From Vicinamibacterales bacterium (GTDB lineage Bacteria; Acidobacteriota; Vicinamibacteria; Vicinamibacterales; UBA2999): DNA of 64,000 nt. A program made the position numbers and the translations under genes. The notes under the pieces are model-generated. The model was not told the origin of the DNA, did no database searches, and saw only the letters and a list, made by a program, of their open reading frames with translations. The stretch is taken from the NCBI GenBank assembly GCA_030680175.1, contig JAUXWO010000111.1, positions 65,145 to 129,144 on the forward strand, written 5' to 3'. Positions 1,192-42,776 of the stretch are shown here, one piece after another; position 1 is the first letter of the stretch; every line of letters begins with the position of its first letter.

Positions 1192-1878
1192 ATGGAATCG
1201 TTCGATCACTACGCGCCGGGCTACGAAGACAAGCTCCGCGATCCCCTGCGGGATCGCTTCGCCGGTGGTGCCCAGTTCTTCATCGATCAGAAGTGCAAGA
1301 TCGTCCGCGGGCGGCTGCCCGCGCCGGCCGGGCGCCGGCTGCGCCTGCTCGACGCCGGGTGCGGCCAGGGGACCGCGTTTGCGGCCTTCGGCCCCGGCAT
1401 CAAGGTGTTCGGGTCCGACGTGTCGCTGCCGATGCTCGGCGAGGCGGTCGCCCGCGGCCCGGTCGTCGCGCAGGAGCCCTACGACCTGCCCTTTGCCGAC
1501 GGCACCTTCGACGCGGTCTACGCGTTCTGCATCTACCACCACATCCCCGATGAGCACCACGTCAGGCACCTGCGGGAGCTGCGCCGCGTCGTCGCGCCCG
1601 GCGGCGAGGTGATGGTGTTCGAACACAACCCCTACAACCCGGTGACCGCGCGGATCTTCAAGCGCGCGCCCGTCGACGAGGGGTGCCACATGATTGCGCC
1701 GCCCGTCCTGCGCGAGACGTTCCGCCAGGCCGGGTTCGACGACCTCGAGCAGGGGTACTGCCTGTTCGTCCCCGAGCCGCTGCAGCCGGTGCTCGGCTGG
1801 ATCGAGCCGCGACTGGCCTGGCTGCCGCTCGGCGGCCAGTACTTCGTCGCGGGTCGCAAGGGAAGCCCCGCCCGATGA
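1192..1878 (+). CDS. Class I SAM-dependent methyltransferase
   Basis: ORF 367..1878 trimmed to MESFDHYAPGY at 1192. Motif I LLDAGCGQGT, then FDAVYAFCIYHHI and APGGEVMVFEHN. Confidence 0.8.
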   Translation: MESFDHYAPGYEDKLRDPLRDRFAGGAQFFIDQKCKIVRGRLPAPAGRRLRLLDAGCGQGTAFAAFGPGIKVFGSDVSLPMLGEAVARGPVVAQEPYDLPFADGTFDAVYAFCIYHHIPDEHHVRHLRELRRVVAPGGEVMVFEHNPYNPVTARIFKRAPVDEGCHMIAPPVLRETFRQAGFDDLEQGYCLFVPEPLQPVLGWIEPRLAWLPLGGQYFVAGRKGSPAR

Positions 1879-4499
1879 TGCCGATCCGGCTGCCACGTCC
1901 GACTCGAACCGCGATCGCGAACGCGTGTCTCGAAGCCGCGCTCGTGTGCGTCGTGTGCCTCGGGGCGTATCAGGTGGCGTTTCGCCAGGTCGACGCGGTC
2001 CACCAGGCGTCGCTGATCGACTGGGAGGTCAGGCCGGCGATCATGATGGCCTGCGGGTACGGCTTCTCGGAGCCCGCCGAGCGCACCACCGTCGTCTCGG
2101 AGTTCACCACCCGCGCGCGGGAGTCGGTCGGCTGTGAGGAGTTTGCCGGGGCCGGTACGCCCGGACCGGCCGTCTCCATCGCCAACGCCAACCGCTATTC
2201 CATCTACGGTGCGGCGCTGGCCATGCGCATCGGCGGCGTGTCCTGGCGCACGCTGGATGCCTATCTCTCCGTCCTCTTCGCGCTGTCGATGGCGTTCGTG
2301 TACGGCCTGTTCCGACAGGCGACCGGACGGACCGTCGCGCTTGCCGGCGTGGCCGCGCTCGTCTGCTCGCCGATGCTGATGGAGATCGCGTCACTGCGGG
2401 ACTTCATCAAGCTGCCCTGCTTCACGGCCCTGTGGCTCGTCCTGGCGTGGGTGATTCGCCGAGGCCTGGCGGACGGTGCGCGTGCAACGCTGCTCCCGAT
2501 GGCCGTCGCCGGCGCGCTCATCGGGATCGGCATCGGCCTGCGCATGGACGCGCTGGTGCTCGCGCCCGTCTTCGTGCTCGCGGTGATTCTCGGCGTGCCC
2601 GGATTCGGCCGGCCCGACCTGCTGCGAAAGGGCGCCGCCACGGCGCTGTTCGTGGTGGCGTTCCTGATCGCGGGCAACCCGATCCTGCGGTCGCTGTCGT
2701 CGGGGTCCAACTTCCCGCACTTCGTCGTGCTGGGCGCCATGGAGCCATTCGACCGCGGCCTCAGCATCGATCGGGCGCCCTATGACGTCGGGGCGCTCTA
2801 CGCGGATGGGTTCGCGTGGACGGTGATCGCGTCGCACGGCATCTACGCCCAGGGGGCGCGGCTCCCGATCCTGCTGGGCTCGCCGGAGTACGACCGCGTC
2901 GGCATGGGCCTGCTGCGCGAGCTCGGCCTGCAATTCCCGGCGGACGTGATCGCGCGCGCCCTCGGGGCGACGCAGCAGCTCTTCCGGTTCCCGTTCGACC
3001 GGCGCCTGCGGGAGGGCGTGCGGTGGCTGCCCGCGTTCCAGGACGCGCCGTGGAGCGCGACGGTCGTCGAGTGGCGCGCACGGGCGCTCGGGTTCTTCGA
3101 GGGGCGGGAGGTGGCGGCCGCGCTGTTCGTCCTGGCCCTCGCCTCGGCGTTCCACTGGCGGCTGGGCCCCATCGGGCTCGTGCTGGCGCTGCTGCTCTGC
3201 GGGTACTCGATGCTGCAGTTCTCGCGGCGTCACATGTTCCATCTCGATGTCATCCCCATCTTCATGACGATCCTCGCGGTCTCGCTGCCCGTCACGCTGG
3301 CCGTGCGCCTGGTCGTGGCGTTCCGGCAGGGCCGCACGGAGGGATGGCAGGCCGTGCGCAGTCACGGCCGCCGGATGGCGATCGGCCTGGCGGTCGTGCT
3401 CCTGCTGCTGGCCGCCCTGGGGGGCACGCTGCGGGCGGCACAGGCATGGCAGCAGGCCTCCGTGTCCCGGCTCATGACGGCGACCCTGCGCGCCGAGTGG
3501 ACTCCGGCGGCCGTGCACGAGGAATCGCTGGCCCCGTTCATCACCCGGAACGGGGACCCGCTCGCGACGTGGCAGCAGCTGTATCACGCGCGTCCGGACC
3601 TCTGGCGCGACGCGACGCTCCTGCGCGTCGACGGCGTCGTGCCCCTCGGCGAGGAACCCCTCGGATCCGGCGACCTCCAGCAGCAGTACTTCCGGGTCAT
3701 CCTCGAGCCTCGCTGCGACGCGCGCCGCGTCTCCATCGGCCTGACGTACTCCGGCGCCATCGACAGCTTCGACTCGCGGTACACGCGCGTGTACCAGGCG
3801 CGCGTGTCGGACGAAGGCCACACGGAGCTGCTCGTGCCCGTCTACTACCACCTCGGGACGAACTGGACCCGCTTCGACGGGTTCGGCGTGCCGGCGGCGC
3901 AGCGCGCCTGCGTGACGCAGGTGCTCAGGGCGCGCGATCCGGCGGCGCTGCCGATGCCGGTGATGAGCGCCGTCCTGGAGCCTGGGTGGCAGGACCGCCC
4001 GCTGTTTCAGCGGTTGCGCCAGCGGCCGCAGGTGACGGCGGCCGGGACCGCCGTGGACCCGCACCCCGACGACCCGGAGGTGCGGCGCTCCGGCTGGCGC
4101 AGGGACGGCGTCGTTCCGCTCGCGCACGAGGTCCCCCCGCTCGATACGTGGGGGCTCGGAGAGCATGTGACCGTCACCCCGACACCGTCGGGCTTCGAGG
4201 TGCGGGGCAACGACGTGCCGTCCGGCTACCAGCTCGTGGGCCCGCTCATTGCCGTCGAGCCGCGCCAGGTGCTGGCGATCCAGATCATCGGGGCCGTCAA
4301 GACGGGCGAGATGTGCGTCGGCGTCCTGGACGGCGCCCAGCAGCGGTGGTTGATGTCGCCGACCGATGCCAGGATCGGGCTGTTGACGGACACGGCAGAC
4401 GAGACGCATGTGCGGATCGTCTTCTCCAATTGCGCCCATCCGCCGGGGACCTTCGAGGTCCGTGCCGTGACATACGAGACGTTTCCCCGTGAAGAGTGA
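1875..4499 (+). CDS. Large polytopic membrane protein, family A paralog 1 (GT-C-like; putative periplasmic glycosyltransferase/polymerase) with C-terminal GYQ-RW module
   Basis: ORF 1683..4499 trimmed to ATG 1875 (ATGA overlap). About 874 aa; the N-terminal ~560 aa has many hydrophobic segments. Shares motifs PAIMMACGYGF, SLRDFIKLP and LQFSRRHMFHL with CDS 48299 and 50262. The last ~115 aa carry the GYQ...RW module. The biochemical function is inferred only. Confidence 0.55.
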   Translation: MMPIRLPRPTRTAIANACLEAALVCVVCLGAYQVAFRQVDAVHQASLIDWEVRPAIMMACGYGFSEPAERTTVVSEFTTRARESVGCEEFAGAGTPGPAVSIANANRYSIYGAALAMRIGGVSWRTLDAYLSVLFALSMAFVYGLFRQATGRTVALAGVAALVCSPMLMEIASLRDFIKLPCFTALWLVLAWVIRRGLADGARATLLPMAVAGALIGIGIGLRMDALVLAPVFVLAVILGVPGFGRPDLLRKGAATALFVVAFLIAGNPILRSLSSGSNFPHFVVLGAMEPFDRGLSIDRAPYDVGALYADGFAWTVIASHGIYAQGARLPILLGSPEYDRVGMGLLRELGLQFPADVIARALGATQQLFRFPFDRRLREGVRWLPAFQDAPWSATVVEWRARALGFFEGREVAAALFVLALASAFHWRLGPIGLVLALLLCGYSMLQFSRRHMFHLDVIPIFMTILAVSLPVTLAVRLVVAFRQGRTEGWQAVRSHGRRMAIGLAVVLLLLAALGGTLRAAQAWQQASVSRLMTATLRAEWTPAAVHEESLAPFITRNGDPLATWQQLYHARPDLWRDATLLRVDGVVPLGEEPLGSGDLQQQYFRVILEPRCDARRVSIGLTYSGAIDSFDSRYTRVYQARVSDEGHTELLVPVYYHLGTNWTRFDGFGVPAAQRACVTQVLRARDPAALPMPVMSAVLEPGWQDRPLFQRLRQRPQVTAAGTAVDPHPDDPEVRRSGWRRDGVVPLAHEVPPLDTWGLGEHVTVTPTPSGFEVRGNDVPSGYQLVGPLIAVEPRQVLAIQIIGAVKTGEMCVGVLDGAQQRWLMSPTDARIGLLTDTADETHVRIVFSNCAHPPGTFEVRAVTYETFPREE

Positions 4500-5613
4500 A
4501 CCCCTCGCGACCGCCGGCCCCGTGACCGAGCGCACGATCATCCACGTCGTCGGCGCGCGGCCGAACTTCATGAAGATCGCGCCCCTGATGGAGGCGATGC
4601 GGGCCGAGCCGCGGTTCCGGCAGGTGCTCGTCAACACCGGGCAGCACTACGACGAGAAGATGGCAGGCGGGTTCTTCCGCGAACTCAAGCTGCCCACCCC
4701 CGACCGTGACCTGGGCGTCGGCTCCGGCACGCACGCCGTCCAGACGGCGAAGGTGATGGTGGCGTTCGAGGACGCCTGCCTCGAACTGAAGCCGGACCTT
4801 GTTGTCGTGGTCGGCGACGTCAACTCGACGATGGCGGCCACGCTGGTGGCGGCGAAGCTGGGCATTCGCGTCGCGCACGTCGAAGCCGGGCTGCGCAGCG
4901 GCGACCGCACGATGCCCGAGGAGATCAACCGGATCGTCACCGACCGGCTCGCGGATCTTCTGTTGACCCCGTCGCGGGACGGCGACGAGCACCTGCTGGC
5001 CGAAGGGGTCCCCCCCGAGCGCATCCGGTTCGTCGGCAACATCATGATCGACACGCTGCACCGGCACCTGCCGATGGCCACCTTCGATCGCATCCGCGAC
5101 CGGGTGCCGGTCGAGCCGGGGCAGTACGCGGTGCTGACGCTGCACCGCCCGTCGAACGTCGATCACCCGGCGACGTTCGAGAGCATCCTCGCCGCGCTCC
5201 GCGACATCGCCCGCGACCTGCCCATCGTGTTTCCGGTGCACCCGCGCACCCGCGCGCGCATGGCCGAATTCGGCATCGACACGGGCGCCGGCGGGTTCGT
5301 CCTGACCGAGCCGCTCGGCTACATCGACTTCCTGAGCCTCACGTCGCATGCCCGGCTCATCCTGACCGACTCCGGCGGGCTGCAGGAAGAGTCCACCGCG
5401 CTCGGCATCCCGTGCCTGACGCTGCGGGAGAACACGGAGCGCCCCGTCACCATCACGCACGGGACGAACCAGCTCGTCGGGACGCGCACCGAGGACATCC
5501 TCGCGGGCTACCGTCGCGCGACGACGGGGGCGGTGCCGGAGGGGAAGCCGGAGCTCTGGGACGGACGGACGGCGGAGCGCATCACCGGCGTGTTCCGGGA
5601 GTTCCTCCGCTAG
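4489..5613 (+). CDS. wecB: UDP-N-acetylglucosamine 2-epimerase (non-hydrolysing), copy 1
   Basis: Motifs IIHVVGARPNFMKIAPL, VNTGQHYD, HVEAGLRS and DSGGLQEE. The 374-aa length is typical of the family. Confidence 0.9.
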   Translation: MKSEPLATAGPVTERTIIHVVGARPNFMKIAPLMEAMRAEPRFRQVLVNTGQHYDEKMAGGFFRELKLPTPDRDLGVGSGTHAVQTAKVMVAFEDACLELKPDLVVVVGDVNSTMAATLVAAKLGIRVAHVEAGLRSGDRTMPEEINRIVTDRLADLLLTPSRDGDEHLLAEGVPPERIRFVGNIMIDTLHRHLPMATFDRIRDRVPVEPGQYAVLTLHRPSNVDHPATFESILAALRDIARDLPIVFPVHPRTRARMAEFGIDTGAGGFVLTEPLGYIDFLSLTSHARLILTDSGGLQEESTALGIPCLTLRENTERPVTITHGTNQLVGTRTEDILAGYRRATTGAVPEGKPELWDGRTAERITGVFREFLR

Positions 5614-5705
5614 GTGGGATCGCGTCTGCGCGCGGTGGCCCTGACGCTCGGTCGTCTGGATATCGTCCGACCGGATGGCGTCGTCGCGCCGCTGGAGTGG
5701 CGCCG

Positions 5706-7781
5706 GTGACGCCCGCTCGAGCGCTCGCACTGGCCGGCAAGCTCTTCACGAAGCCGCCCGCCTACACGCTGATGCGCGCGCGGCAGGAGGCGGCGCGGGT
5801 GCTGTGGCGGCCGTGGACGCGGGTGCGGCCGGCGCTGTTCGACGAGCGGGCGTTCCTGCGCACGGTGGGGGCGGCCTCCGTCGATGCGTACTGGGAGGCG
5901 CGCGCGGCCGCACCCTTCTTCCTGAACCCGTCCGACCGCGACGGGTGGGCGGAGGCGTTCCGGGCGCGCTGGCCCGGCGCGCAGGCGGAGATCGTCGACG
6001 CCGCCGCACGCGTGCTGCGTCACGAGTTCGACCTGCTGGGGTCGGGCCCGAAGGCGCTTGGCCCACGGTTGCCGTGGCACGAGGACTTCAAGACCGGGCG
6101 CGTGTGGCCGCTGCAGTACAGCCCCGATATCGAGTTCTCCGAACTGGACAAGCCCACCGACGTCAAGGTGCCATGGGAGCTGAGCCGCTGCCAGCACGTC
6201 GGCGTGCTCGGCCAGGCGTACTGGCTGACCGGCGACGAGCGCTACGCGCAGGAGTACGTCGACGAGATCACGGACTGGATCGCGCGCAATCCGTGGGGGC
6301 ACGGCGTCAACTGGATCTGCGCGATGGACGTCGCCCTCCGCGCGGTCAACTGGATCTGGGGCTTCCACTTCTTCGCGGGCAGCCGCGCGTGTGCCGACCC
6401 GGCGTTTCGCGGCGCGCTGCTCCGGAGCCTCCACCTCCACGGCGAGTGGGTGGCGTCTCATCTGGAGAAGGGGCCGGTCAACGGCAACCACTATCTCTCC
6501 GACGGCGTGGGGCTCGTGTTTCTCGGCACGTTCTTCGACGGCGTGGGCGCGGCGGGCCGGTGGCTCGAGACCGGGCGCGCGATCGTCCTCGACGAGATGC
6601 TCGTCCAGGTCACGGCGGACGGCGTGGACTTCGAGGCGTCCACCGCGTATCACCGGCTCGTGATGGAGTTGTTTCTCACGGCGTACCTCCGGCTCCGCCA
6701 CTACGGGGAGACGATTCCCGACGCGCAGTGGACGAGGCTCGAGCGCATGGCGGCGTTCGTCGAGGCGTACGTGAAGCCGGACGGACTGGCGCCGCTCGTC
6801 GGGGATGCCGATGACGGGCGCGTGCAGATCCTGGGGCGGCAGGCGATCGGCGACCATCGGTACCTGCTGTCGACATGCGCCGTGCTCTTCGGCCGCGGCG
6901 ACTTCAAGCGCGGCGCCGGTGGCTTCCACGAAGAATCGTTCTGGATGCTTGGCCCCGCGGGAGCGGACGCGTTCGACGCGCTGGCGGAGGGGCCTGGCGT
7001 ACCGGCGTCGGCAGGCTTTGCCGAGGGGGGCTACTACGTGCTGCGCGACGGCGCCACGCACGTCTTCATCGACTGCGCTGACGTCGGCATGCGGGGGATT
7101 GGCGGACACGGGCACAACGACATCCTGTCGTTCGAGCTGGTGCTCGATGGCGTGCCGGTGGTGACCGACTGCGGAGCCTACCTGTATACTGCGTCGAGGG
7201 AGTGGCGGAACCGGTTTCGCAGCACGGCGTTCCACGCGACGATCCAGGTGGATGGCGAGGAAGTGAATCGCTTTCTCGGGCCCGACGCGCTGTGGCAACT
7301 CCACGCCGATGCGACACCCGACGCGGTGTCCTTCCGGACCGGCCCCGGCGGCGCGCGCGTCCGGGGCGCCCATCTCGGCTACCAGCGGCTGCCGTCCCCC
7401 GTTCGCGTCCAGCGTGACGTGGCGCTCGCGGCCGGCGCGCCGGCGGTGTTCGTGGCCGATGTCCTCGAAGGAGAGGGCCGGCACCGCGTGACGTGGCGCT
7501 TTCCATTGCCGCCCGACCTCGAACCCGTCGTCGACGGGCACGACGTGCGGCTCGCCCGTGGGGCGGCGGAGCGCTGGGTGCTGCCCGTGCGGGGGCACCA
7601 GGGACTCGTCTGGAAGGTCGAGGCCGGCTGGGTCTCGCCGAGCTACGGCGTGCGGCACGAGACGCGCGTGCTGAGACTGGAGGGCGACCTGCAGCTGCCG
7701 CACCGCCTGACGTTGCTGTTTACTACGCGCTGGCGATCCGCACACGAGCGGTCCGCCGATCTCGAGGGACTCGCGGGCTGA
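5706..7781 (+). CDS. Heparinase II/III-like protein, copy 1 (no signal peptide)
   Basis: ORF 5412..7781 trimmed to GTG 5706 (alternative GTG at 5697). Motifs VKVPWELSRCQH, GVNWICAMDVALRAVNW, NGNHYLSDGVGL, FEASTAYHRLV and GHGHNDILSFEL are typical of the heparinase II/III family. The N-terminus is not hydrophobic. Confidence 0.75.
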   Translation: MTPARALALAGKLFTKPPAYTLMRARQEAARVLWRPWTRVRPALFDERAFLRTVGAASVDAYWEARAAAPFFLNPSDRDGWAEAFRARWPGAQAEIVDAAARVLRHEFDLLGSGPKALGPRLPWHEDFKTGRVWPLQYSPDIEFSELDKPTDVKVPWELSRCQHVGVLGQAYWLTGDERYAQEYVDEITDWIARNPWGHGVNWICAMDVALRAVNWIWGFHFFAGSRACADPAFRGALLRSLHLHGEWVASHLEKGPVNGNHYLSDGVGLVFLGTFFDGVGAAGRWLETGRAIVLDEMLVQVTADGVDFEASTAYHRLVMELFLTAYLRLRHYGETIPDAQWTRLERMAAFVEAYVKPDGLAPLVGDADDGRVQILGRQAIGDHRYLLSTCAVLFGRGDFKRGAGGFHEESFWMLGPAGADAFDALAEGPGVPASAGFAEGGYYVLRDGATHVFIDCADVGMRGIGGHGHNDILSFELVLDGVPVVTDCGAYLYTASREWRNRFRSTAFHATIQVDGEEVNRFLGPDALWQLHADATPDAVSFRTGPGGARVRGAHLGYQRLPSPVRVQRDVALAAGAPAVFVADVLEGEGRHRVTWRFPLPPDLEPVVDGHDVRLARGAAERWVLPVRGHQGLVWKVEAGWVSPSYGVRHETRVLRLEGDLQLPHRLTLLFTTRWRSAHERSADLEGLAG

Positions 7782-7835: not shown

Positions 7836-10487
7836 ATGCGACAGGTTCTTCTCAACAGCCACGGCGCCGTCGTGGCGCGCGTGCCCCGGCCCACCGTGGA
7901 GCCGGGCACCGTGCTCGTCCGCGTCCACTATTCGCTCATCTCCGTCGGCACCGAGATCGCGCCGCTGCGCTCCACGCTGACCGCGCCGGACGTCACCTCG
8001 GTCGAGAAGGGGATGGCGTACGCGAGCCTCGCGCAGCACTACTTCAGGGCGAGCCTCAGGGATCCACGGAAGGCGGCCTCGCGCCTGAAGCAGATCGCGC
8101 GCCGGCAGATTGCGGCGATGCGCCCCCCCGAGACGCCCGCGCCGGTGCCCGCCGTGGCGCTGGGCCGCGCCGAGTGGACGAAGGCCAGCGAGACCGCCAC
8201 GCTGACCGCGACGGGCGACCGCGTCGAGGTCGTCACCGACAGCACCCCGGCCGGCTACCAGGTGATGTCGCAGGTCTTCGCGGTGCCGGAGGGGCAGGTT
8301 GCCCTCGTGCGCGTGCGCGGCACGATCGAGGGCGGTCCCATCGCCATCGGCCTGCTCAACGATGCGCGCGACCGCTGGCTGCTGACGCGAACCTACGAGC
8401 CCGGTGACTTCGAGGACCAGCTCGTCTGCGAGGCCGGCGCGTCGCCGCAGATCACCGTGGTGGTGACGACGGCCAGCGCCGGCAGGCCCGTGAGGGTCGC
8501 GCTCGATCGTGCGGAGGTGGCGCTGGCCCCGCCCACCGTGGGCGGCCTGCCGCACAGCGAGCTGAACGACACCGGCTGGAACGTCGGCTACTCGGTGGCG
8601 GGCGAGGTGGTGGCCGTGGGACAGGGCATCACGGACCTGGCGCCAGGGGACCTCGTCGCGTGCGCGGGCGCCGGCCAGGCGAACCATGCCGACTACGTGG
8701 TCGTCCGCCGCAACCTCGTGGCGCGCCTGCCGAAGGGCTGCCCGGTGGACATGGCGGCGTCGACGACGATCGGCGCCATCGCGCTCCAGGGCGTGCGCCG
8801 CGCGGCGCCCGAACTCGGCGACCGCATCGCCGTCGTCGGGCTCGGCCTCATCGGCCAGATCACGGTGCAGCTCCTGAAGGCGAACGGCTGCAAGGTGATC
8901 GGCCTCGACCTGGACCCGGGGCGCGTGGCGCGGGCGCGCGAGCGCGGCATGGACGCCGGCGCCAGCGACCCGGCGGAGTTCCTCGGGCTCGTGCGCGACC
9001 TGACGGGCGGGCAGGGGGCCGACCGGACGATCCTGACGGCGGCCACGAAGTCCGACGCCGTGATCAACCTCGGCATGGACGTCACGCGCCGCCGTGGCGC
9101 CGTCATCATCGTCGGCGACGTGTCGCTCAACGTGAAGCGCGAGGTGTTCTACCGCAAGGAGATCGACCTGTTGATGAGCACGTCGTACGGGCCCGGCCGG
9201 TACGACGCCTCGTACGAGGTCGAGGGACGCGACTATCCCTACGCCTACGTGCGGTGGACGCAGAACCGCAACATGCAGGCGTATCTCGAGCTCGTCGCGT
9301 CGGGCCAGCTGCAGATCCAGCCGCTCATCGATCGCGTGATCTCCATCGACGAGACGCCGTCCGCGTACAAGGAGCTGGCGAAGGGCGGCCAGGCGTTGCC
9401 CATGGGCGTGCTCATCCGCTACCCGGACGATGCGCGCGACCTGCCGGAGGCGCTGGATGCGCCGCGGATCACGATCCGGGGGCACCGGCCGCCGCCGGAC
9501 GGCGTGATCAACTACGCGCTCGTCGGCGCCGGCGGGTTCGGGACCGGCATGCTCGTGCCGCAGATGAAGAAGCGGCGCGACCGCTTCTTCCTCCGCGGTG
9601 TGGTCAGTCGCGGATCGGCGGCGTCGGGCAACTTCGCGCGCGAGCACCAGGTCGAGGTGCTCACCACCGACTACGGCGCGATCCTGGCCGATCCGGGCTT
9701 TCACCTCGTCGTGCTCGCCACGCGGCACGACAAGCACGCCGATCAGGTCGTGCGCGGCCTCGAGGCCGGCAAGCACGTGTTCGTCGAGAAGCCGCTGGCC
9801 CTCTCGTGGGAGGAACTCGACCGGGTCGTCGGGACGTACCGCGGCCTCGAGCAGCCGCCGCTGCTGCTTGTCGGGTTCAACCGGCGCTTCTCGCCCGCGG
9901 TGCAGGCGATCAAGGCCGCCACGGCGAACCGCCGCGCCCCCCTCGTCGTCAACTACCGGCTCCACGCCGGCTACCTGCCGCCGGATCACTGGGTACACGG
10001 GCCGGAAGGCGGCGGGCGCAACGTGGGCGAGGCCTGCCACATGTACGATGTGTTCAGGTGCCTGACGGGGGCGCCGGTGCAGTCGGTGACGGCCACCGCG
10101 ATCGATCCTGGCACCTTGCCGTACTTCCGCAACGACAACTTCGCGGCGACGATCGGCTACGCCGACGGCAGCGTCTGCACGCTGACCTATACGTCGCTCG
10201 GGCCGAAGCAGGGGCTCGGCAAGGAGTACATCGAGGTGTTCAGCGACGGCGAGGCGTACATCGTCGACGACTTCAAGAAGCTGACGAAGACGAGCGATCA
10301 GTCCGTGCTGTGGCAGAGCAGCGAGGCCGACAAGGGCCACCGCGACGAGCTGAGCCAGTTCGGAGACGCGATCGCCGCCGGCGCACCGTCGCCAATCCCG
10401 TTCGACGAACTCGTCGAGACATCGGCACTGGCGCTGCGCATCGAGGACCTGCTGCACGGACGCATCGACGACGGGGAGGGGGCCTAG
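7836..10487 (+). CDS. Bi-domain oxidoreductase (MDR/zinc-ADH-like half + Gfo/Idh/MocA half) carrying an inserted ~125-aa GYQ-RW module
   Basis: N-terminal half: VLVRVHYSLISVGTE ... GYSVAGEVVAVG, with Rossmann motif VVGLGLIGQITVQLL. Second half: Rossmann motif YALVGAGGFGTGMLVPQM and HVFVEKPLAL (Gfo/Idh/MocA). Residues ~108-232 form an extra segment between the GroES-like strands. Confidence 0.8.
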   Translation: MRQVLLNSHGAVVARVPRPTVEPGTVLVRVHYSLISVGTEIAPLRSTLTAPDVTSVEKGMAYASLAQHYFRASLRDPRKAASRLKQIARRQIAAMRPPETPAPVPAVALGRAEWTKASETATLTATGDRVEVVTDSTPAGYQVMSQVFAVPEGQVALVRVRGTIEGGPIAIGLLNDARDRWLLTRTYEPGDFEDQLVCEAGASPQITVVVTTASAGRPVRVALDRAEVALAPPTVGGLPHSELNDTGWNVGYSVAGEVVAVGQGITDLAPGDLVACAGAGQANHADYVVVRRNLVARLPKGCPVDMAASTTIGAIALQGVRRAAPELGDRIAVVGLGLIGQITVQLLKANGCKVIGLDLDPGRVARARERGMDAGASDPAEFLGLVRDLTGGQGADRTILTAATKSDAVINLGMDVTRRRGAVIIVGDVSLNVKREVFYRKEIDLLMSTSYGPGRYDASYEVEGRDYPYAYVRWTQNRNMQAYLELVASGQLQIQPLIDRVISIDETPSAYKELAKGGQALPMGVLIRYPDDARDLPEALDAPRITIRGHRPPPDGVINYALVGAGGFGTGMLVPQMKKRRDRFFLRGVVSRGSAASGNFAREHQVEVLTTDYGAILADPGFHLVVLATRHDKHADQVVRGLEAGKHVFVEKPLALSWEELDRVVGTYRGLEQPPLLLVGFNRRFSPAVQAIKAATANRRAPLVVNYRLHAGYLPPDHWVHGPEGGGRNVGEACHMYDVFRCLTGAPVQSVTATAIDPGTLPYFRNDNFAATIGYADGSVCTLTYTSLGPKQGLGKEYIEVFSDGEAYIVDDFKKLTKTSDQSVLWQSSEADKGHRDELSQFGDAIAAGAPSPIPFDELVETSALALRIEDLLHGRIDDGEGA

Positions 10488-10488
10488 C

Positions 10489-13164
10489 GTGCGCTGCCTG
10501 TATCTGACGGCGGGCGGCGACGTCGGCATCGTCGACGAGCCGAGGCTCGCGACGACGACCGAGCGGCACAAGATCGAGCTGCCGGCGCCGGCCTCGCTCA
10601 TGCCGGGGCCGCCGCTGCGGCTGCTGGACCAGGATCCCTCGCTGGCGGGCGTCATCGTGGAGATGACGCTCGGCTTCGCGCCGCGCGCGACCCTGCGCCT
10701 GGCCCGCGAGGTGCTGCGCCGGGGCCGGCGGGTGTGGCTCCACTGGCCCACGGAGACGGCCGTGGAGTGTGTCGACGACGAGCGGCTCGCGAGCCACTGG
10801 CGGCACTGGGTGTTCATCGTGGCGGGGTTCGCCCGCCAGCGGCTGGCGGGCGCCGTCGCCGTCACGCTGGGCCGCATCGCCGCGCGGCTGCCGGGCCGGC
10901 TGAAGCGCCTGATTCCGGCGCGCTTCCACTTCGTGGATACCTGGGCCAGCGACTGCCGCGTGGCGGAGTTGACGGCGCTGCTGGACACGATGGCGCCGGT
11001 CCCGCTGACCCGGGTCGAGCCCGGCGCGTCCGTGGCGGTGCCCGGGACCGGCGCGTATCTCCGGACGGACTTCTGGGCGCGCATCGACTCGGGGGGCAGC
11101 TACGGCCACACGTGCTATGTCGCCAAGGAACTGGCCGCGACGAGTGACGGGTTCGTGTGCTTCATGGCGCATCGGTACTCGCTGCTGGACGAGTACGGCC
11201 TGACGCAGGTGGCGCTGCCGCCGCCGCCGGGCGACGCCACGGAGGACGTCATCGTGAACGCCACCGCGCACTACATGGTGGCGCTCAGGCCCGCGTTCGA
11301 GATCCTGCGCCCGGCGTACATCTACGAGCGGCTCTGCCTGGGCAACTATGCGGGCGCCCTGCTGAGCCGCCAGCTCGGCATCCCGTACATCGCGGAGTAC
11401 AACGGCTCCGAGATCTCGATGCGCCGCAGCTTCGACGGCGTCGGCTATCAGTACGAGCGCGAGTACCTGCTCGCCGAGGCGGTCGCGTTTCGCCAGGCCA
11501 CGATGATCTCCGTCGTGTCCGAGGAAGTCGGCGCGTCGCTCATCGCGCGCGGCGTCGATCCCCGGAAGATCCTCGTGAACCCCAACGGGGCCGACCTCAC
11601 GGCGTATGCGCCCGCGTCTCCGGCGCTGAAGGCCGAGGTGCGGGCCGAGGCGGGACTGGACGCGGACGCGCCCGTGGTTGGCTTCACCGGCACCTTCGGG
11701 GGGTGGCACGGCATCGACGTGCTCGCCGCCGCCCTGCCGCGCCTCTGCGCGCGCGTGCCACGGGCACAGTTCCTCCTGATCGGCGACGGCAACTACAAGC
11801 ACGTCATCGACAAGGCCATCGCCGAACACCAGCTCCAGACGCGCGTGCGCTGCACGGGGCGCGTGCCGCAGGCCGAGGGGGCGAGGCTGCTCAAGGCGTG
11901 CGATCTGTACGTCTCGCCGCACAGCAGCCACATGGTCGACAGCAAGTTCTTCGGCTCGCCGACGAAGATCTTCGAGTACATGGCCATGGGCGGCGGCATC
12001 GTCGCCAGTGACCTCGAGCAGATCGGCCAGGTGCTGTCGCCGGCGCTCAGGGCCGGGGATCTCGCCGATCAGGCGACGACCGCCGGTGAGGCGCGCGCCG
12101 TGCTCTGCGAGCCGGGCAACGTCGACGAGTTCGTGGAGGCGGTCGCCGGCCTCCTGGCCCGGCCCGACCTCTGGCCGGGGCTCGGGCAGAACGCCCGGCG
12201 TGCCGTCGAGCAGCACTACTCGTGGGCGCGCCATGTCGCCCGGCTGTGGCCGTTTCTCGCCGGCGCCACGGCGGAGGCCGCCCCCGTCGATCCGCCGCGC
12301 GAGCGCGCGGCGGCCGCCCCGGCCGCCGACGAGGCCCCGGCCGGCATCGAGACCGGCGATCGGTACAAGGACGAGGTGCAGCGGCAGTGGGACAACGATC
12401 CCGCCGGCTCGCACTACGTCAAGGAGGCCCGGCCGCACACGCTCGACTGGTTCCGGGAGGTCGAGGCGTACCGCTACGATGAGTACGCGCCGTGGATGGC
12501 CGAGACCATGGAGTTCGCGCGTCACGCGGGGGAGCGCGTCCTGGAGATCGGCGCCGGCATCGGCACCGACCACGTGCAGTTCGCGATCAATGGCGCGATC
12601 ACGACCGACATCGACCTGTCGTCAGGACACCTCGAACTCGCGAAGGAGAACTTCAGGCTGCGCGGCCTGCAGGGCACCTTCGTCCACCACGACGCCGAGC
12701 GGCTCCCCTTCGACGACGACACGTTCGACGTCGTCTACAGCAACGGCGTCATCCATCACACGCCGAACACCTATGACGTCGTGCGCGAGATCCGCCGTGT
12801 GCTCCGGCCCGGCGGCAAGGCGATCGTCATGGTCTACGCCGAGAACTCCCTGCACTACTGGCGCAATCTCGTCTGGGCCATCGGCATCAGGGAGCACGCG
12901 CTGCAGCAGCAGTCCATGGGCGACATCATGTCGCGCTCCGTGGAGCGGTCCGACAACGCCGCGGCGCGGCCCCTGGTGAAGGTGTACACCCCGGCGCGGC
13001 TTCGCCAGTTGTTCGGGGGATTCGACGGGATCGAGATCGTGCAGCGGCAGATGGTCGCCGCCGAGAAGCCGCGGCTGCTGCGCTGGGTCCCGCTGCCGGC
13101 CCTCGGGCAGTGGATGGGCTGGAACCTGGTCATCAAGGCGCGCAAGCCGGGAGGCGCCCGCTGA
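10489..13164 (+). CDS. Fusion protein: N-terminal extension + GT4 (GT-B) glycosyltransferase + C-terminal class I SAM methyltransferase
   Basis: GT-B region: GGSYGHTCYVAKEL, EYNGSE, GFTGTFGGWHGIDVL and FGSPTKIFEYMAMGGGIVAS. An Ala/Pro-rich linker follows. Methyltransferase motifs: VLEIGAGIGTD, FDVVYSNGVIHHTP and LRPGGKAIVMVY. Confidence 0.8.
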   Translation: MRCLYLTAGGDVGIVDEPRLATTTERHKIELPAPASLMPGPPLRLLDQDPSLAGVIVEMTLGFAPRATLRLAREVLRRGRRVWLHWPTETAVECVDDERLASHWRHWVFIVAGFARQRLAGAVAVTLGRIAARLPGRLKRLIPARFHFVDTWASDCRVAELTALLDTMAPVPLTRVEPGASVAVPGTGAYLRTDFWARIDSGGSYGHTCYVAKELAATSDGFVCFMAHRYSLLDEYGLTQVALPPPPGDATEDVIVNATAHYMVALRPAFEILRPAYIYERLCLGNYAGALLSRQLGIPYIAEYNGSEISMRRSFDGVGYQYEREYLLAEAVAFRQATMISVVSEEVGASLIARGVDPRKILVNPNGADLTAYAPASPALKAEVRAEAGLDADAPVVGFTGTFGGWHGIDVLAAALPRLCARVPRAQFLLIGDGNYKHVIDKAIAEHQLQTRVRCTGRVPQAEGARLLKACDLYVSPHSSHMVDSKFFGSPTKIFEYMAMGGGIVASDLEQIGQVLSPALRAGDLADQATTAGEARAVLCEPGNVDEFVEAVAGLLARPDLWPGLGQNARRAVEQHYSWARHVARLWPFLAGATAEAAPVDPPRERAAAAPAADEAPAGIETGDRYKDEVQRQWDNDPAGSHYVKEARPHTLDWFREVEAYRYDEYAPWMAETMEFARHAGERVLEIGAGIGTDHVQFAINGAITTDIDLSSGHLELAKENFRLRGLQGTFVHHDAERLPFDDDTFDVVYSNGVIHHTPNTYDVVREIRRVLRPGGKAIVMVYAENSLHYWRNLVWAIGIREHALQQQSMGDIMSRSVERSDNAAARPLVKVYTPARLRQLFGGFDGIEIVQRQMVAAEKPRLLRWVPLPALGQWMGWNLVIKARKPGGAR

Positions 13165-14821: not shown

Positions 14822-16810
14822 ATGTGGTCCCGCCTTCGACACCTGCTCCGGCTGCGCGCCGACACGACCGCGCTCGCGACGCCGCCGCCCCCGGCGCCCG
14901 TGCGCTGGGCGCCGCCGGCCGGATGGATCGCGCGGCGCCGGACGCACACCGCCGCATATGCCGGCCTGGACGCCGATGGCGTCGCACGGGCGCGGGCCCT
15001 CGCGCCTGCGGCGGCGCGCCGCGTCCTCGAGGCGGCGGCGCGGGCGCTCCGCCACGAGTTCGACCTGCTCGGCAGCGGCCCCTTCGTGCCGGTCGATCCC
15101 GATCGCCCGGTCCGCGAGGGCTATCAGCCGATCGACTGGTATCTCGACCCCGTGCGGCACCTGCGCTTCCCCAGGGGCGTGCCCCACACGGAGTGGAGGC
15201 TCTACGAGATGCGGCCCGGCAACGCCGACGTCAAGTACCCCTGGGAGCTGGCGCGGTGCCAGCACTGGGTGACGCTGGGTCAGGCGTGGCGGCTCACAGG
15301 TGACGACCGGTTCGCGCGCGAGATCGTCGACCAGCTCGACGACTTCGTGGAGGCCAACCCGGTCGGCATCGGCATCAACTGGACCTGCACGATGGACGTG
15401 GCGCTCCGCGTCGTGAGCTGGGTGATGGCGCTCGACCTCGTGCGGGACTGCGAAGGCATCGATGAGGCGGCACGGGCCCGCGCGTATACCGCGCTCTTCG
15501 ACCACGGGGTGTTCATCCGCGGCAATCTGGAGAACACCTACGAGGTCACGAGCAACCATTTCCTGAGCAACGTTCTCGGGCTGTGGTTCCTGGCGGCTGC
15601 GTTCGAGGACCTGCCGGACGGGCAGGCGTGGGGGGCGTTCGCACGCGAGGCGCTCGAGGCCGAGATCGACGTCCAGGTGCTGCCCGATGGCGCCGACTTC
15701 GAGTCGTCCGTGCCGTATCACCGGCTCGTCGCGGAACTGTTCCTCGGTGGCGCCCGGCTGGCCGACCATCGCGGACAGCCGCTTTCGGCGCACTACCGGG
15801 CGCGCGTGCGTGACATGATCGCGTATCTGGCCGGGGTGCAGCGGCCGGACGGGCTGATGCCGCAATCGGGCGATGCCGATGACGGACGGCTGCACGTGAT
15901 GGGCGGGACGGGGATGACGACGCCGCAGGATCCGAGACACCTGTTCGGACCGGCGGCGGTGATGTTCGACGAGCCGGCATGGCTCGCCGCGGGCGGCGAG
16001 GCCGGTGTGTGGGAGGCCGCCTGGTGGGGGCTGCCGCTGCCGGCGGCCGTGCCCGACGAGGGGCGGCTGCCTCCGGTCACGCGGCTCTTCCCGGACGCCG
16101 GCCACGCGGTCGTGCGGGACGACGGTCTCTACTTGCTCATCACCAACAGCATCGTCGGCACGAAGGGGTTCGGCAATCACAAGCACCACGACCAGCTGGG
16201 CTTCGAGTACCACGTCGGCGGCGTGCCGGTCGTCGTCGACCCCGGGAGCTACGTCTACACGTCCGATGCGGCGGCACGGAACCTGTTCCGGAGCACGCGC
16301 TATCACAGCACGCTGTCCGTGGACGGCGAGGAGCAGCACGAGATGAATCCCGAATGGCTGTTCCGGCTGTTCGAGCAGGGGCACGCCGAGCATCTCTCGT
16401 TTGGCGAGGCCGGCGGCTGGGTGGAGTACCGCGGACGTCACGTCGGCTACACGCGCCTGCCGGCCCCTGTGACGCACGAGCGCCGGATCCGGCTCCAGCG
16501 TGCGACCGGCCGCCTGGAGATCGAGGATGTCCTCAGCGGGAGCGGCACGCACGCCCTGGCGTGGCACTTCCATCTCGCGCCCGGCGTCGAGGCTTCGGTG
16601 GCTGGCGGTAGCGCGCGTCTGGCGACCGGCGCCGGGACGGTCCTGCTGGCCTGGCCGTCCGGCGTGGACGCACGGGTCAGCGACGCCTGGGAGTCGCCGT
16701 CGTACGGCGTGCGTCGCGCCTGCCGCGCCGTGGACCTGTCCGCCGAGGTCTCCCTGCACGGCGACGCCGTGTTCCGCTTCACCATGGCGCCGGAGGCGCA
16801 CGCCTCGTGA
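14822..16810 (+). CDS. Heparinase II/III-like protein, copy 2 (no signal peptide)
   Basis: Motifs VKYPWELARCQH, GINWTCTMDVALRVVSW, TSNHFLSNVLGL, FESSVPYHRLV and GFGNHKHHDQLGFEY. Clear paralog of 5706..7781. Confidence 0.75.
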   Translation: MWSRLRHLLRLRADTTALATPPPPAPVRWAPPAGWIARRRTHTAAYAGLDADGVARARALAPAAARRVLEAAARALRHEFDLLGSGPFVPVDPDRPVREGYQPIDWYLDPVRHLRFPRGVPHTEWRLYEMRPGNADVKYPWELARCQHWVTLGQAWRLTGDDRFAREIVDQLDDFVEANPVGIGINWTCTMDVALRVVSWVMALDLVRDCEGIDEAARARAYTALFDHGVFIRGNLENTYEVTSNHFLSNVLGLWFLAAAFEDLPDGQAWGAFAREALEAEIDVQVLPDGADFESSVPYHRLVAELFLGGARLADHRGQPLSAHYRARVRDMIAYLAGVQRPDGLMPQSGDADDGRLHVMGGTGMTTPQDPRHLFGPAAVMFDEPAWLAAGGEAGVWEAAWWGLPLPAAVPDEGRLPPVTRLFPDAGHAVVRDDGLYLLITNSIVGTKGFGNHKHHDQLGFEYHVGGVPVVVDPGSYVYTSDAAARNLFRSTRYHSTLSVDGEEQHEMNPEWLFRLFEQGHAEHLSFGEAGGWVEYRGRHVGYTRLPAPVTHERRIRLQRATGRLEIEDVLSGSGTHALAWHFHLAPGVEASVAGGSARLATGAGTVLLAWPSGVDARVSDAWESPSYGVRRACRAVDLSAEVSLHGDAVFRFTMAPEAHAS

Positions 16811-17628
16811 GCAACCCCGTGGCAGTGCTGTCGACGGCATCGGTGGAGAGCGCCCGCGTCATCGTGGCCAACCGCGGGCTGCTGGCCGCGATCACGCGGG
16901 TCGAACTGCAGAAGAAGTACGCCGGGTCGGTGCTGGGGCTCGGGTGGGTCTTCCTGCAGCCGGCGCTCCTGCTGTCGGTCTACCTGTTCATCTATCTGGT
17001 GGTCTTCCAGGTGCGTTTTCCGGGGTTCAGCACGTTTGACTACGTGTTGTATGTCTTCTGCGGGCTCGTCCCGTACTTCGGCTTCATGGAGGCGCTCACG
17101 ACGGGGGGGCTGTCGATCCGGCAGAACATCCACCTCGTGAAGAACGTGATGCTGCCGATTGAACTCGTGCCGGTGCGGGCGGTGCTGGTGGGGATGATGA
17201 GCCAGTTCGTGAGCCTGGCGATCGTGCTGCTGATGCTGGCCGCGTCGGGGAAGCTGACGCCGCACGTGCTGTGGCTGCCGCTCGTCGTCGTGCTGCAGGT
17301 GCTGCTCCTCATCGGGCTGACGTGGATCCTGTCAAGCCTCACCGTGGCGCTGCCGGATGTGACGTATTTCGTGAACCTCTTCGTGTTCCTGCTGATGTTC
17401 CTGTCGCCCATCGGCTTCAAGCCGGACATGGTGCCGGCGAACTTCCAGTGGGTGATCTACCTCAACCCTGTCTACTACATGATCGAGGCCTACCGGGATA
17501 GCATGCTGAACGGCACGTGGCCGGATCTGTTTGATTTCACCGTGTACGCCGCCGGCTCGTTGGGGGCGTTCGCCGCGGGGGCGGCGTTCTTCAGGGCGTT
17601 CAAGGGCGTGCTGGTCGACTACGAATGA
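16807..17628 (+). CDS. ABC-2 type polysaccharide export permease (Wzm/TagG-like)
   Basis: 273 aa with about six hydrophobic segments. The N-terminal LQKKYAGSVLGLGWVFLQP signature is that of ABC-2 exporters. GTGA overlap with the upstream gene. Confidence 0.8.
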   Translation: MSNPVAVLSTASVESARVIVANRGLLAAITRVELQKKYAGSVLGLGWVFLQPALLLSVYLFIYLVVFQVRFPGFSTFDYVLYVFCGLVPYFGFMEALTTGGLSIRQNIHLVKNVMLPIELVPVRAVLVGMMSQFVSLAIVLLMLAASGKLTPHVLWLPLVVVLQVLLLIGLTWILSSLTVALPDVTYFVNLFVFLLMFLSPIGFKPDMVPANFQWVIYLNPVYYMIEAYRDSMLNGTWPDLFDFTVYAAGSLGAFAAGAAFFRAFKGVLVDYE

Positions 17629-19733: not shown

Positions 19734-20590
19734 TCTGGATCGTCCTGCCTGCCTACAACGAAGCGCAGGCGCTGCCGAAGCTGCTGCCCAGGCTCGACGC
19801 CGTCCTGCGCGAGCGCGGGCATGACTACCGGCTGGTCGTCGTCGACGATGGGAGCTCGGACGCGACCCCGGAGATCCTGGAGGGCTTCCGCGCCACGCTG
19901 CCCCTCGACATCGTCACCCATCCCATCAACCGGGGACTCGGCGAGACGGAGCGCGACGGCTTCGAGTACGTGGCGACACACTGCGCGCCGGACGATGTGA
20001 TCGTGCGGGTGGAGGGCGACGACACACACGACCCGGCGTACATCTTCGTCCTGCTGGAGAAGCTCGCGAGCGGCTTCGACGTGGTCAACACGTCGCGCTT
20101 TCAGCCGGGCGGCGCGCAGCGTGGCGTCAGCACGTACCGCGCCTTCATCAGCCGGTGCGCGAACCTGTTCATGAAGGTGATGTTCCCGATCCCCGGGCTC
20201 TGGGACTTCTCGTGCGGCTTCCGCGCCTACCGCGCCCGCGTGATCATCGATGCCGTCCGGGTGTTCGGCGACGACTTCGTCCAGTTGCGCGGCATGGGCT
20301 TCACGTCGACGCTCGAGATGGTCGTGAAGTTGAGCCTGCTCGGGTGCCGGTTCGCGGAGGTGCCCTTCGTCCTTCGCTACGACATGAAGGAGAGCGGCAG
20401 CAAGATGGTCGGGAGCATCACGACCCTCGGCTACCTGCTGATGGCGCTGCTCTATCACTGGCCGTTCGGCGGGTGGCGCAGCCGCTATCGCGGCCTCGCG
20501 GCGATGTACCGCCAGGACCCCGAGGCCGCGGTCGCCAAGTATCAGAAATCACAGTTGCCGAGACAGACGGCCAGCGGCATCCGTCTCTAA
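19730..20590 (+). CDS. Glycosyltransferase family 2, DPM1/Ppm1-like polyprenyl-phosphate glycosyltransferase, paralog 2
   Basis: ORF 19700..20590 trimmed to MIWIVLPAYNEAQAL at 19730 (ATGA overlap). Motifs VVVDDGSSDATPE and VEGDDTHDP, plus a single C-terminal hydrophobic segment. Confidence 0.8.
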   Translation: MIWIVLPAYNEAQALPKLLPRLDAVLRERGHDYRLVVVDDGSSDATPEILEGFRATLPLDIVTHPINRGLGETERDGFEYVATHCAPDDVIVRVEGDDTHDPAYIFVLLEKLASGFDVVNTSRFQPGGAQRGVSTYRAFISRCANLFMKVMFPIPGLWDFSCGFRAYRARVIIDAVRVFGDDFVQLRGMGFTSTLEMVVKLSLLGCRFAEVPFVLRYDMKESGSKMVGSITTLGYLLMALLYHWPFGGWRSRYRGLAAMYRQDPEAAVAKYQKSQLPRQTASGIRL

Positions 20591-20592
20591 GC

Positions 20593-20633
20593 CACGACCC
20601 ACGACCCACGACCCACTACCACTACCCACTACC
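20593..20633. repeat. Heptanucleotide tandem array B: CACGACC x3, CACTAC, CACTACC x2
   Basis: Read directly from the sequence between TAA 20588-20590 and ATG 20638. One unit is 6 nt long. Confidence 0.9.
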
Positions 20634-20637
20634 CAGC

Positions 20638-42362: not shown

Positions 42363-42776
42363 ATGTTGCCCGACGCCGTGACCGCGCTCATCAGGGAGGA
42401 ACAGGCCCGTTCGGGAGGACGGTTCATCGCCCGTCCGGACCTCGACGCCTATCTGGACAAGCTTGGCCGGCACGCCGACGCGCTCATCGACCTGCGCGCA
42501 GGACGCTGCCTCGGGGTCGTCGCGTACTACGCCAACGATGTCGAGAGCCGGCGGGCGTTCATCCCACTTGTCCTCGTGGCGCCGGACGCGCGAGGGCAGG
42601 GGCTCGCGGGCCTGCTCGTCGGTGGCGTGCTCGACCTCTGCCGTGCGCGGGGGTTCACCCGCTGCGGACTGGAAGTGCGCGCCGACAACCGTGCCGCCCT
42701 GTCCGCCTACCGCCGCCTCGGGTTCGAGATGGTCCGCGAACGTGAGGGGATCCTGCTGATGGAGGTCGCCCTTTGA
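42363..42776 (+). CDS. GNAT N-acetyltransferase
   Basis: Motifs VLVAPDARGQGLAGLLVGGVLDLCRARGF and ALSAYRRLGFEMV. Confidence 0.85.
   Translation: MLPDAVTALIREEQARSGGRFIARPDLDAYLDKLGRHADALIDLRAGRCLGVVAYYANDVESRRAFIPLVLVAPDARGQGLAGLLVGGVLDLCRARGFTRCGLEVRADNRAALSAYRRLGFEMVREREGILLMEVAL

Follow-up and report, generated by a model that had tools for sequence, protein, structure and literature searches.

The present analysis concerns a cytoplasmic bi-domain oxidoreductase, here called OX, encoded in a 64,000-nucleotide stretch of DNA from a Vicinamibacterales bacterium (contig JAUXWO010000111.1, positions 65,145 to 129,144; the whole stretch is referred to as the window). OX carries, spliced into its catalytic lobe, a module that by profile comparison is homologous to the C-terminal ends of large membrane proteins (M1 to M4) encoded in the same window. 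The module belongs to an unnamed and undescribed beta-jelly-roll family of about 125 to 130 residues, fairly widespread, whose fold resembles that of carbohydrate-binding modules (CBMs) of the CBM4, CBM22 and CBM29 type. We consider it somewhat better than an even bet, at a probability of roughly 0.55, that the module is a glycan-binding accessory and holds the various enzymes of a single pathway on a common polymer or lipid-linked intermediate.

An original prediction, made from the letters of the window alone, had noticed a common pattern in OX and three membrane proteins, namely GYQ followed at set distances by G-x4-G-[VIL]-L and R-W-[LV], and had proposed an unnamed domain common to a cytoplasmic enzyme with two Rossmann folds and to membrane-protein C-termini. 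The motifs were found exactly where they had been placed, with GYQ codons starting at 8253 (OX), 4224 (M1), 39490 (M2) and 42015 (M3) and the other two elements following at the claimed spacing. Furthermore, BLASTP between the copies gave E-values of 3e-12 for OX and M1, 3e-11 for OX and M2, 8e-7 for OX and M3, and 2e-30 for M2 and M3. A hidden Markov model (HMM) built from OX inserts alone matched M1 (4e-8), M2 (1e-6) and M3 (0.012), and reciprocally an HMM built from the membrane-protein copies alone matched 119 of the 120 OX homologues, with E-values (computed with Z = 1e6) down to 3e-15. When a four-copy HMM was run on the six-frame translation of the window, the OX, M1, M2 and M3 open reading frames (ORFs) matched and no others. 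Comparison of the three membrane families by hhalign aligned the module only (E 5.5e-22, 3.3e-33 and 2.9e-28), and no sequence relationship was detectable among the membrane parts of the M1-, M2- and M3-type families. The similarity is significant, and these comparisons indicate homology of the four segments rather than a low-complexity or generic beta pattern. The proposal of a shared domain was thus borne out.

A weaker copy had also been suspected at the end of a fourth membrane protein, M4. The narrow HMMs of 4 and 21 sequences did not detect it. A family-wide HMM, run against the window ORFs, found it with an E-value of 8e-6, and phmmer matched the M4 C-terminus to second-domain copies from other members of the family (E 6e-20 to 2e-10). 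On this similarity we accepted it as a divergent member of the family. Across genomes, the modules cluster by host protein and not by genome (31 to 74% identity among OX copies, 54% among M1 copies), which argues that the insertion is old and not a recent local duplication. Homogenisation or co-adaptation of the copies within one genome was rejected on the same grouping.

OX is 100% identical to the NCBI entry 'MAG: bi-domain-containing oxidoreductase [Vicinamibacterales bacterium]' (P0010; MAG, metagenome-assembled genome). By its Pfam matches and NCBI name, it is a single chain with a Rossmann domain of the medium-chain dehydrogenase/reductase (MDR) type in its N-terminal part and a Gfo/Idh/MocA domain after it. 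The Pfam matches are ADH_N at residues 248-299, ADH_zinc_N at 339-457 and GFO_IDH_MocA at 558-667, together with GFO_IDH_MocA_C. Hydropathy gave no transmembrane segment, signal peptide or hydrophobic N-terminus. Residues from about 41 to 247 have no match in Pfam or NCBIfam, and the ADH_N match begins only at profile position 34. The module therefore sits within the GroES-like half of the MDR domain and splits it, as had been proposed. The order in this region is a lead-in (residues 41-104), the module (105-237) and a short linker back to GWNVGYS. The signature residues of the module in OX are W114, Y141-Q142, G167, G172, L174, W181 and V209. GTE and GYS of OX align with the Cys46-Gly-Thr-Asp and Gly-His67-Glu segments flanking the substrate cleft of classical MDR dehydrogenases, and for this reason the insert would emerge beside the substrate entrance.

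We compared OX with canonical enzymes of about 700 residues from Babeliales, Bacteroidota and Microcosmobacter genomes. In the alignment, the distance from GTE to (L)GYS is about 205 residues in the OX subfamily as against about 50 unrelated residues in the canonical enzymes, so that the latter do not simply carry another segment of the same length. OX lacks the uninterrupted GroES-like lobe with its GTE-to-GYS segment of about 50 residues, and this marks the subfamily of about 880 residues. The lead-in of OX is itself longer than the canonical segment and dissimilar to it. Among OX homologues, mean identity is 58.6% in the lead-in, 52.6% in the module and 72.2% in the core.

The original prediction had called the insert cluster-specific. 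This did not hold, since the module is present in 119 of the 119 full-length OX homologues (about 880 residues, 65 to 84% identical) among the matches listed, and the family as a whole comprises 736 clusters at 50% identity. A 752-residue partial sequence, P0092, is the sole listed homologue without a module match. Insert-bearing oxidoreductases occur in Acidobacteriota and in Alpha- and Gammaproteobacteria; further bearers, at 50 to 56% identity, come from Hyphomicrobiaceae, Amphiplicatus, a gammaproteobacterial MAG and another Pseudomonadota MAG. The canonical relatives of about 700 residues have no module. In 117 OX homologues, about 14 module positions are at least 97% conserved, including W114, Y141, Q142, G167, G172, L174 and W181. 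Judged from these alignments, the insert is a trait of the whole subfamily and is maintained in it. The 'bi-domain oxidoreductases' of about 880 residues are therefore better annotated as three-domain proteins. Our literature search found no functional study of a 'bi-domain oxidoreductase'.

Beyond oxidoreductases, an exhaustive HMMER profile search of 1.84 billion cluster representatives (clusters at 50% identity) returned 736 proteins at E<=1e-3, 285 of them at E<=1e-10. The family is thus rare, at about 4 per 10 million representative proteins. The extreme rarity suggested by a word-indexed profile search, which returned 9 fragments, was rejected as a sensitivity artefact in light of the exhaustive search and of the searches with full-length OX. 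Domain architectures were described for the best 150 of the 736 matches. Single C-terminal copies end three unrelated polytopic families (M1-, M2- and M3-type), which resemble glycosyltransferases of the GT-C class. One to three N-terminal copies precede GT4 glycosyltransferases, other copies follow a methyltransferase, and in six representatives two or three copies lie between a Radical_SAM core and a SPASM domain. Other proteins are tandem arrays of two to four or more copies, and several of these start with a signal peptide; tandem copies are typical of CBMs. Nearly all hosts are glycan enzymes, namely GT-C-like proteins, GT4 enzymes, methyltransferases and radical-SAM/SPASM enzymes in a polysaccharide cluster. 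Over 226 instances the signature is W10, Y37 (90%), Q38 (82%), G63 (98%), G68 (96%), L70 (91%), W77 (90%) and V105 (81%).

The radical-SAM/SPASM enzymes (P0175, P0190, P0205, P0242, P0246 and positions 8001-11201 of locus L018) have about 1000 to 1400 residues and two to four internal copies. They are a second instance of a module internal to a cytoplasmic enzyme, an unusual use for a CBM-like domain, and one of them adjoins an insert-bearing oxidoreductase. P0007, a 195-residue metagenome protein on a 3.3-kb contig, joins a MEDS-domain (PF14417) N-terminus to the C-terminal two-thirds of an M1-type module and is probably a mis-called or chimeric ORF.

What, then, is the fold of this module? 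An AlphaFold2 model from a 21-sequence alignment is an all-beta, 11-strand beta-sandwich with a mean predicted local distance difference test score (pLDDT) of 92.4 and a predicted TM-score (pTM) of 0.85. Foldseek against the PDB returned mostly CBMs as best matches, among them CBM4 1gui (E 2.6e-5), CBM4-2, CBM29, CBM22, CBM61 and a porphyran-binding CBM, as well as the CBM-like domain at the N-terminus of a GH51 arabinofuranosidase. Specifically, the query-normalised TM-score (TMq) was 0.50 to 0.64 for the CBMs 1gui, 1k42, 1gwl and 4xuo, each at a Foldseek probability of 1.0, and 0.69 for the accessory domain 8hhv of an endo-arabinanase. The model thus suggests a jelly roll that superimposes on known CBMs at 0.5 to 0.69, in a module that lies contiguously within carbohydrate-active enzymes (GT-C-like, GT4 and sugar oxidoreductase hosts). 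HMM searches of Pfam and the PDB with the module, as had been proposed, returned no known domain: no copy matches a Pfam or NCBIfam family, an existing CBM family model included, and PDB sequence searches with module profiles gave nothing significant. The one marginal PDB sequence match, 8xmz (E 0.77), is a porphyran-binding CBM that is also among the fold matches.

Regarding the membrane hosts, M3 is the one with a modelled fold. Its full-length AlphaFold model (pLDDT 87.5, pTM 0.84) matched AftD and EmbC (the best PDB matches), EmbA/B, STT3, ArnT (target-normalised TM-score, TMt, 0.52), AglB, ALG9/12, DPY19 and PglB in Foldseek. D42-D43, directly after the first transmembrane helix, is invariant in 32 homologues and occupies the site of the GT-C catalytic acidic residues. 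A polytopic core with acidic residues after the first helix, a combination seen for M3 only, gives the modelled protein the features of the GT-C fold. M1 reaches 27.7 bits for PMT_2 (cut-off 26.1), and its NCBI entry, MDP1571598.1, is named glycosyltransferase family 39. M2, M3 and M4 have no match in Pfam or NCBIfam, and PDB searches with the three membrane-family profiles gave nothing significant. The earlier view that the membrane hosts are GT-C enzymes therefore stands in part, for M3 by predicted fold and for M1 by a weak family match, with M2 left untyped. A 657-residue paralogue of M1 and M4 ends without the module, which shows that the module is an optional appendage.

M2 and M3 are encoded by adjacent, translationally coupled genes, with overlapping ATGA and GTGA junctions; the M2 start overlaps the preceding stop codon (ATGA). 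Their modules are the closest pair in the window (43% identical) despite unrelated membrane parts. GT2 genes lie directly upstream of M1-type proteins, at 2-1180 before 1875-4499 and at 46334-48298 before 48299-50272 and 50229-52778. Neighbours of this kind usually form a pair in which the GT2 enzyme makes the polyprenyl-phosphate sugar and a GT-C enzyme transfers it.

On which side of the membrane do the copies lie? With the 11 model helices of M3 taken as spanning, its Arg-rich loops (RRW, RT-GA-GR, EEGRWRR, DRGPR-RR and RVR) fall on alternate sides, and the model predicts M3 to be N-in and C-out. Hydropathy gives odd numbers of transmembrane segments for M1 (about 11) and M2 (about 9). The C-terminal copies of the membrane hosts are thus predicted to be periplasmic, as the original prediction had expected. 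In addition, 78 representative domains have both Cys66 and Cys109 of the module, 2 have one of them and 125 have neither. The pair is limited to C-terminal copies of GT-C type; no oxidoreductase, GT4, methyltransferase or radical-SAM copy has it. Such covariation would fit a disulfide in an oxidising compartment and is supportive, not diagnostic. The pair as a plain mark of the periplasm is weakened by the signal-peptide tandem arrays and by 19 of the 50 transmembrane-linked copies, none of which has it. The family is thus in use on both sides of the membrane, the periplasmic use being predicted. Since the GT4, methyltransferase and radical-SAM hosts are cytoplasmic, such use of two compartments is normal for the family, and the topological puzzle that had been seen in a cytoplasmic copy dissolves; fusions of this kind and proteins with signal peptides carry the domain routinely.

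The window is one long, co-directional, plus-strand polysaccharide cluster of about 40 genes. The genes around insert-bearing oxidoreductases recur in the order epimerase, heparinase-like, oxidoreductase, GT4-methyltransferase, heparinase-like and ABC-2 permease. Going by its family assignment, the permease would mark an ABC-transporter-dependent polysaccharide pathway. A second module-bearing gene lies within 8 to 10 kb of the insert-bearing oxidoreductase in the window and in three further loci (L001, L003 and L018). L001 encodes three other module proteins and L003 an M1 orthologue with the module. In L018, the 887-residue oxidoreductase has as neighbours a radical-SAM/SPASM protein (3-4 module copies), an 886-residue protein (2-3 copies) and heparinase-like, GT4 and Asn-synthase genes. 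The neighbourhoods of five canonical-oxidoreductase loci contain no module copy. Since only about 4 in 10 million representative proteins have the domain, such clustering departs strongly from chance.

We propose the following scheme. The module, in a surface loop of the GroES-like lobe of the cytoplasmic oxidoreductase and at the ends of predicted periplasmic glycosyltransferases (M3 by its modelled fold, M1 and M4 by the GT39/PMT match, M2 untyped), would bind the glycan chain of the pathway or its lipid-linked intermediate and so keep each tailoring enzyme on the polymer. Cytoplasmic hosts, here the oxidoreductase and elsewhere GT4, methyltransferase and radical-SAM proteins, would act before the ABC transporter exports the chain. 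The GT-C enzymes would act on it afterwards in the periplasm, and the neighbouring GT2 enzymes would supply their polyprenyl-phosphate sugar donors. A shared substrate-binding module, which the original prediction had offered as one option, is thus plausible and fits both the CBM-like fold and the clustering of a rare domain in enzymes of the same loci. Several observations weigh against glycan binding. Foldseek gave modest E-values (1e-5 to 1e-3), with identities of 9 to 17%, and non-CBM jelly rolls are among the matches (MAM, the ephrin-receptor ligand-binding domain, Cry domain III and Ena fibres); a jelly-roll fold by itself is no proof of sugar binding. No Pfam CBM model matches the module in the 21 aligned copies or in the window proteins. 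Half of the insert-bearing loci (4 of 8: L006, L014, L015 and L016) have no second copy within 10 kb. With modules grouped by host protein, nothing points to co-adaptation with a ligand peculiar to one genome. Finally, the secreted tandem-array copies are without the Cys pair, so that the pair marks a clade no less than a compartment.

A bolder extension, which we hold to be rather unlikely, is a pathway-wide 'glycan address tag', in which one module specific for the lipid-linked backbone is attached to unrelated enzymes (in the cytoplasm a dehydrogenase, a radical-SAM/SPASM enzyme, GT4 transferases and methyltransferases, in the periplasm GT-C enzymes) that all act on the same chain at the level of the polymer, before and after export. 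If so, the bi-domain oxidoreductase would modify sugars within the assembled polymer and not nucleotide sugars, and the heparinase II/III-like protein that always adjoins it would perhaps likewise act on the polymer.

Could the module instead mediate contacts between proteins? As a docking or oligomerisation domain, it would assemble a membrane-associated complex or oligomerise each host. The presence of one rare domain in several enzymes of a cluster is compatible with this, as are Ena fibre subunits among the fold matches and a marginal Pfam C1q match (24.9 bits) of one lone, distant family member, P0157; C1q/TNF jelly rolls trimerise. However, none of the 21 aligned copies matches C1q, the top 50 fold matches include no C1q/TNF structure, and the best of them are monomeric CBMs. 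The secreted tandem arrays suit lectin-type avidity better, and four of the eight insert-bearing loci have no partner copy nearby. Specifically, the idea in the original prediction that OX docks to the GT-C C-termini was rejected on topology, because the copy in OX lies in the cytoplasm and those of the GT-C enzymes, if periplasmic as predicted, could make no contact with it. We regard docking as improbable.

Still less credible, to our judgement, is a role in targeting, in which the module would bind the membrane surface or the head group of undecaprenyl-(pyro)phosphate. All hosts plausibly use polyprenol-linked intermediates, the soluble cytoplasmic hosts (oxidoreductase, GT4, methyltransferase and radical SAM) would gain from recruitment to the membrane, and C2-like beta-sandwiches recruit proteins to membranes elsewhere. 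But polytopic GT-C enzymes are already embedded in the membrane and have no need of such a domain, and secreted tandem arrays with signal peptides do not fit. Furthermore, the best fold matches include no C2 or lipid-binding domains, save a weak match to the GOLD domain of SEC14L4.

The least probable account is a tolerated insertion without a specific ligand, a stable, mobile beta-sandwich kept by history as a spacer or scaffold; the variable segment of about 50 residues already present at this site in canonical enzymes and the faster evolution of the module relative to the catalytic core would allow it, but it sits poorly with retention of the insert across phyla in every full-length homologue listed, with the near-invariant positions and the W, YQ, G, G.L, W signature held across unrelated hosts, and with repeated independent recruitment to glycan enzymes.

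If the glycan-binding reading is true, the module would flag enzymes that look like nucleotide-sugar enzymes and actually act on polymer. In uncultured Acidobacteriota and Proteobacteria, it would help to predict tailoring at the level of the polysaccharide, and with more than 700 sequence clusters it would give grounds for a new Pfam/CAZy family.

The coordinates of the features discussed are collected below.

Table 1. Module copies, their hosts and the conserved neighbours of OX in the window (TM, transmembrane; aa, amino acids).
Feature	Coordinates	Strand	Basis
OX: bi-domain oxidoreductase, 883 aa, Zn-less MDR/alcohol dehydrogenase (ADH) + Gfo/Idh/MocA	7836..10487	+	Pfam, NCBI name, hydropathy
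Lead-in before module, OX residues 41-104, helical, Pro-rich, after GTE	7956..8147	+	Alignment with canonical ~700-aa homologues
Inserted module in OX, residues 105-237, 11-strand beta-sandwich	8148..8546	+	HMM envelope, AlphaFold2, Foldseek
M1: ~11-TM membrane protein, 874 aa, weak PMT_2 match	1875..4499	+	Pfam, NCBI name, hydropathy
Module copy, M1 C-terminus, Cys pair (MCVGVL, SNC)	4122..4496	+	HMM, alignment, envelope
M2: ~9-TM membrane protein, 637 aa, separate family without Pfam match	37876..39789	+	Pfam, hydropathy, homologue searches
Module copy, M2 C-terminus, Cys pair	39388..39780	+	HMM, alignment, envelope
M3: membrane glycosyltransferase with predicted GT-C fold, 856 aa, 11 TM helices, ~450-aa C-terminal soluble region	39786..42356	+	AlphaFold2, Foldseek
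Module copy near M3 C-terminus, Cys pair	41907..42308	+	BLASTP, alignment, envelope, profile comparison
Third M1/M4 paralogue, 657 aa, terminates without module	48299..50272	+	HMM, phmmer
M4: M1 paralogue in membrane part, 849 aa	50229..52778	+	phmmer, M1 core vs M4 core 1.5e-47
Divergent fifth module copy, M4 C-terminus, without GYQ, retains GLL...W	52353..52772	+	Family-wide HMM, phmmer, envelope
UDP-GlcNAc 2-epimerase, in conserved gene order around insert-bearing oxidoreductases	4489..5613	+	Pfam, synteny
Heparinase II/III-like, directly upstream of OX, conserved neighbour	5412..7781 (longest ORF; true start probably near 5610)	+	Pfam, synteny
GT4 glycosyltransferase-methyltransferase fusion, directly downstream of OX, conserved neighbour	10489..13164	+	Pfam, synteny
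ABC-2 (Wzm-type) permease, conserved neighbour	16807..17628	+	Pfam, synteny

Other genes of the window give some idea of the product. They encode GT2 and GT4 transferases, a carbamoyltransferase, a formyltransferase, several methyltransferases, a WbmS-like deacetylase, two WbqC-like proteins, two UDP-GlcNAc 2-epimerases and two heparinase II/III-like proteins. There are three amidotransferases of Asn-synthase type (20155-22539, 28113-29987 and 52780-54711) and three DegT-family aminotransferase matches, full-length at 26926-28101 and 46242-47375 and also at 24785-26395. From this gene content, the pathway looks like one for a heavily N-acylated or amidated amino-uronic-acid polymer. The two heparinase II/III-like proteins (5412-7781 and 14822-16810) flank the pair formed by OX and the GT4-methyltransferase, and this arrangement is conserved across phyla. 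Such a lyase-fold protein in a biosynthetic operon might serve as a polymer-level epimerase or a trimming enzyme. No gene for an ABC ATPase (Wzt) adjoins the permease at 16807-17628, where the next gene is the second UDP-GlcNAc 2-epimerase; in related loci the permease likewise precedes GT4-methyltransferase or Asn-synthase genes. The ORF at 60620-62587 is a fusion of a GT4 glycosyltransferase with a C-terminal DUF218, and the GT4 ORFs at 55609-58092 and 57681-59399 have, in the longest reading frame, long N-terminal extensions with no family match. Within 22523-24208 and 42773-44691 are one protein with weak prenyltransferase/squalene-hopene-cyclase-like and pectate-lyase-like repeats and two adjacent proteins with weak beta-propeller signals (BNR/GH32/GH43/GH130-like), none of them confident.

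CBMs on periplasmic GT-C enzymes and on the Wzt ATPase are already known. The C-terminal domain of EmbC is a CBM (PMC3044687), and the C-terminal CBM of the GT136 enzyme ORF12 from Citrobacter youngae O1 binds the O-polysaccharide backbone (PMC11127046). In mycobacterial EmbC, EmbA, EmbB and AftD and in ORF12, as in the window, a beta-sandwich follows the last transmembrane helix of a GT-C enzyme, and the ORF12 cluster, for O-antigen, is likewise ABC-transporter-dependent. On the periplasmic side, the CBMs of EmbC, AftD and ORF12 bind the acceptor polysaccharide (PMC3044687, PMC11127046), whereas binding by the window modules is putative. In contrast to those CBMs, the module has no detectable sequence relation to any solved structure, and its family also occurs inside cytoplasmic enzymes of the same pathway, which is not reported for them. 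Wzt, the ATPase of the O-antigen ABC transporter, has a cytoplasmic beta-sandwich carbohydrate-binding domain that recognises the lipid-linked polymer before export (PMC9445017). Like the OX module, this domain lies in the cytoplasm and belongs to a polysaccharide pathway that depends on an ABC transporter, so that there is nothing paradoxical about a CBM in that compartment of such a pathway. However, the Wzt domain stands at the C-terminus of an ATPase and not within a dehydrogenase, is not in the top 50 fold matches of the module, and had no sequence similarity to it in our searches.

The CBM4, CBM22 and CBM29 modules of glycoside hydrolases share with the window family a size of about 130 residues, tandem occurrence and attachment to carbohydrate-active enzymes. 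They differ in that the module is only 9 to 17% identical to them, its hosts are biosynthetic and not hydrolases, and it is often internal rather than terminal. The canonical bi-domain oxidoreductases resemble OX in both catalytic domains, which are collinear and 35 to 37% identical, and in the loss of the Zn ligands (GTE, GYS). They differ in having about 50 unrelated residues in place of about 205, and the module is absent from their neighbourhoods. The new element is a CBM-like family, as yet unnamed, whose members interrupt the catalytic lobe of a dehydrogenase, lie between the core and the SPASM domain of radical-SAM enzymes and, on the predicted topology, are used on both sides of the membrane within one pathway.

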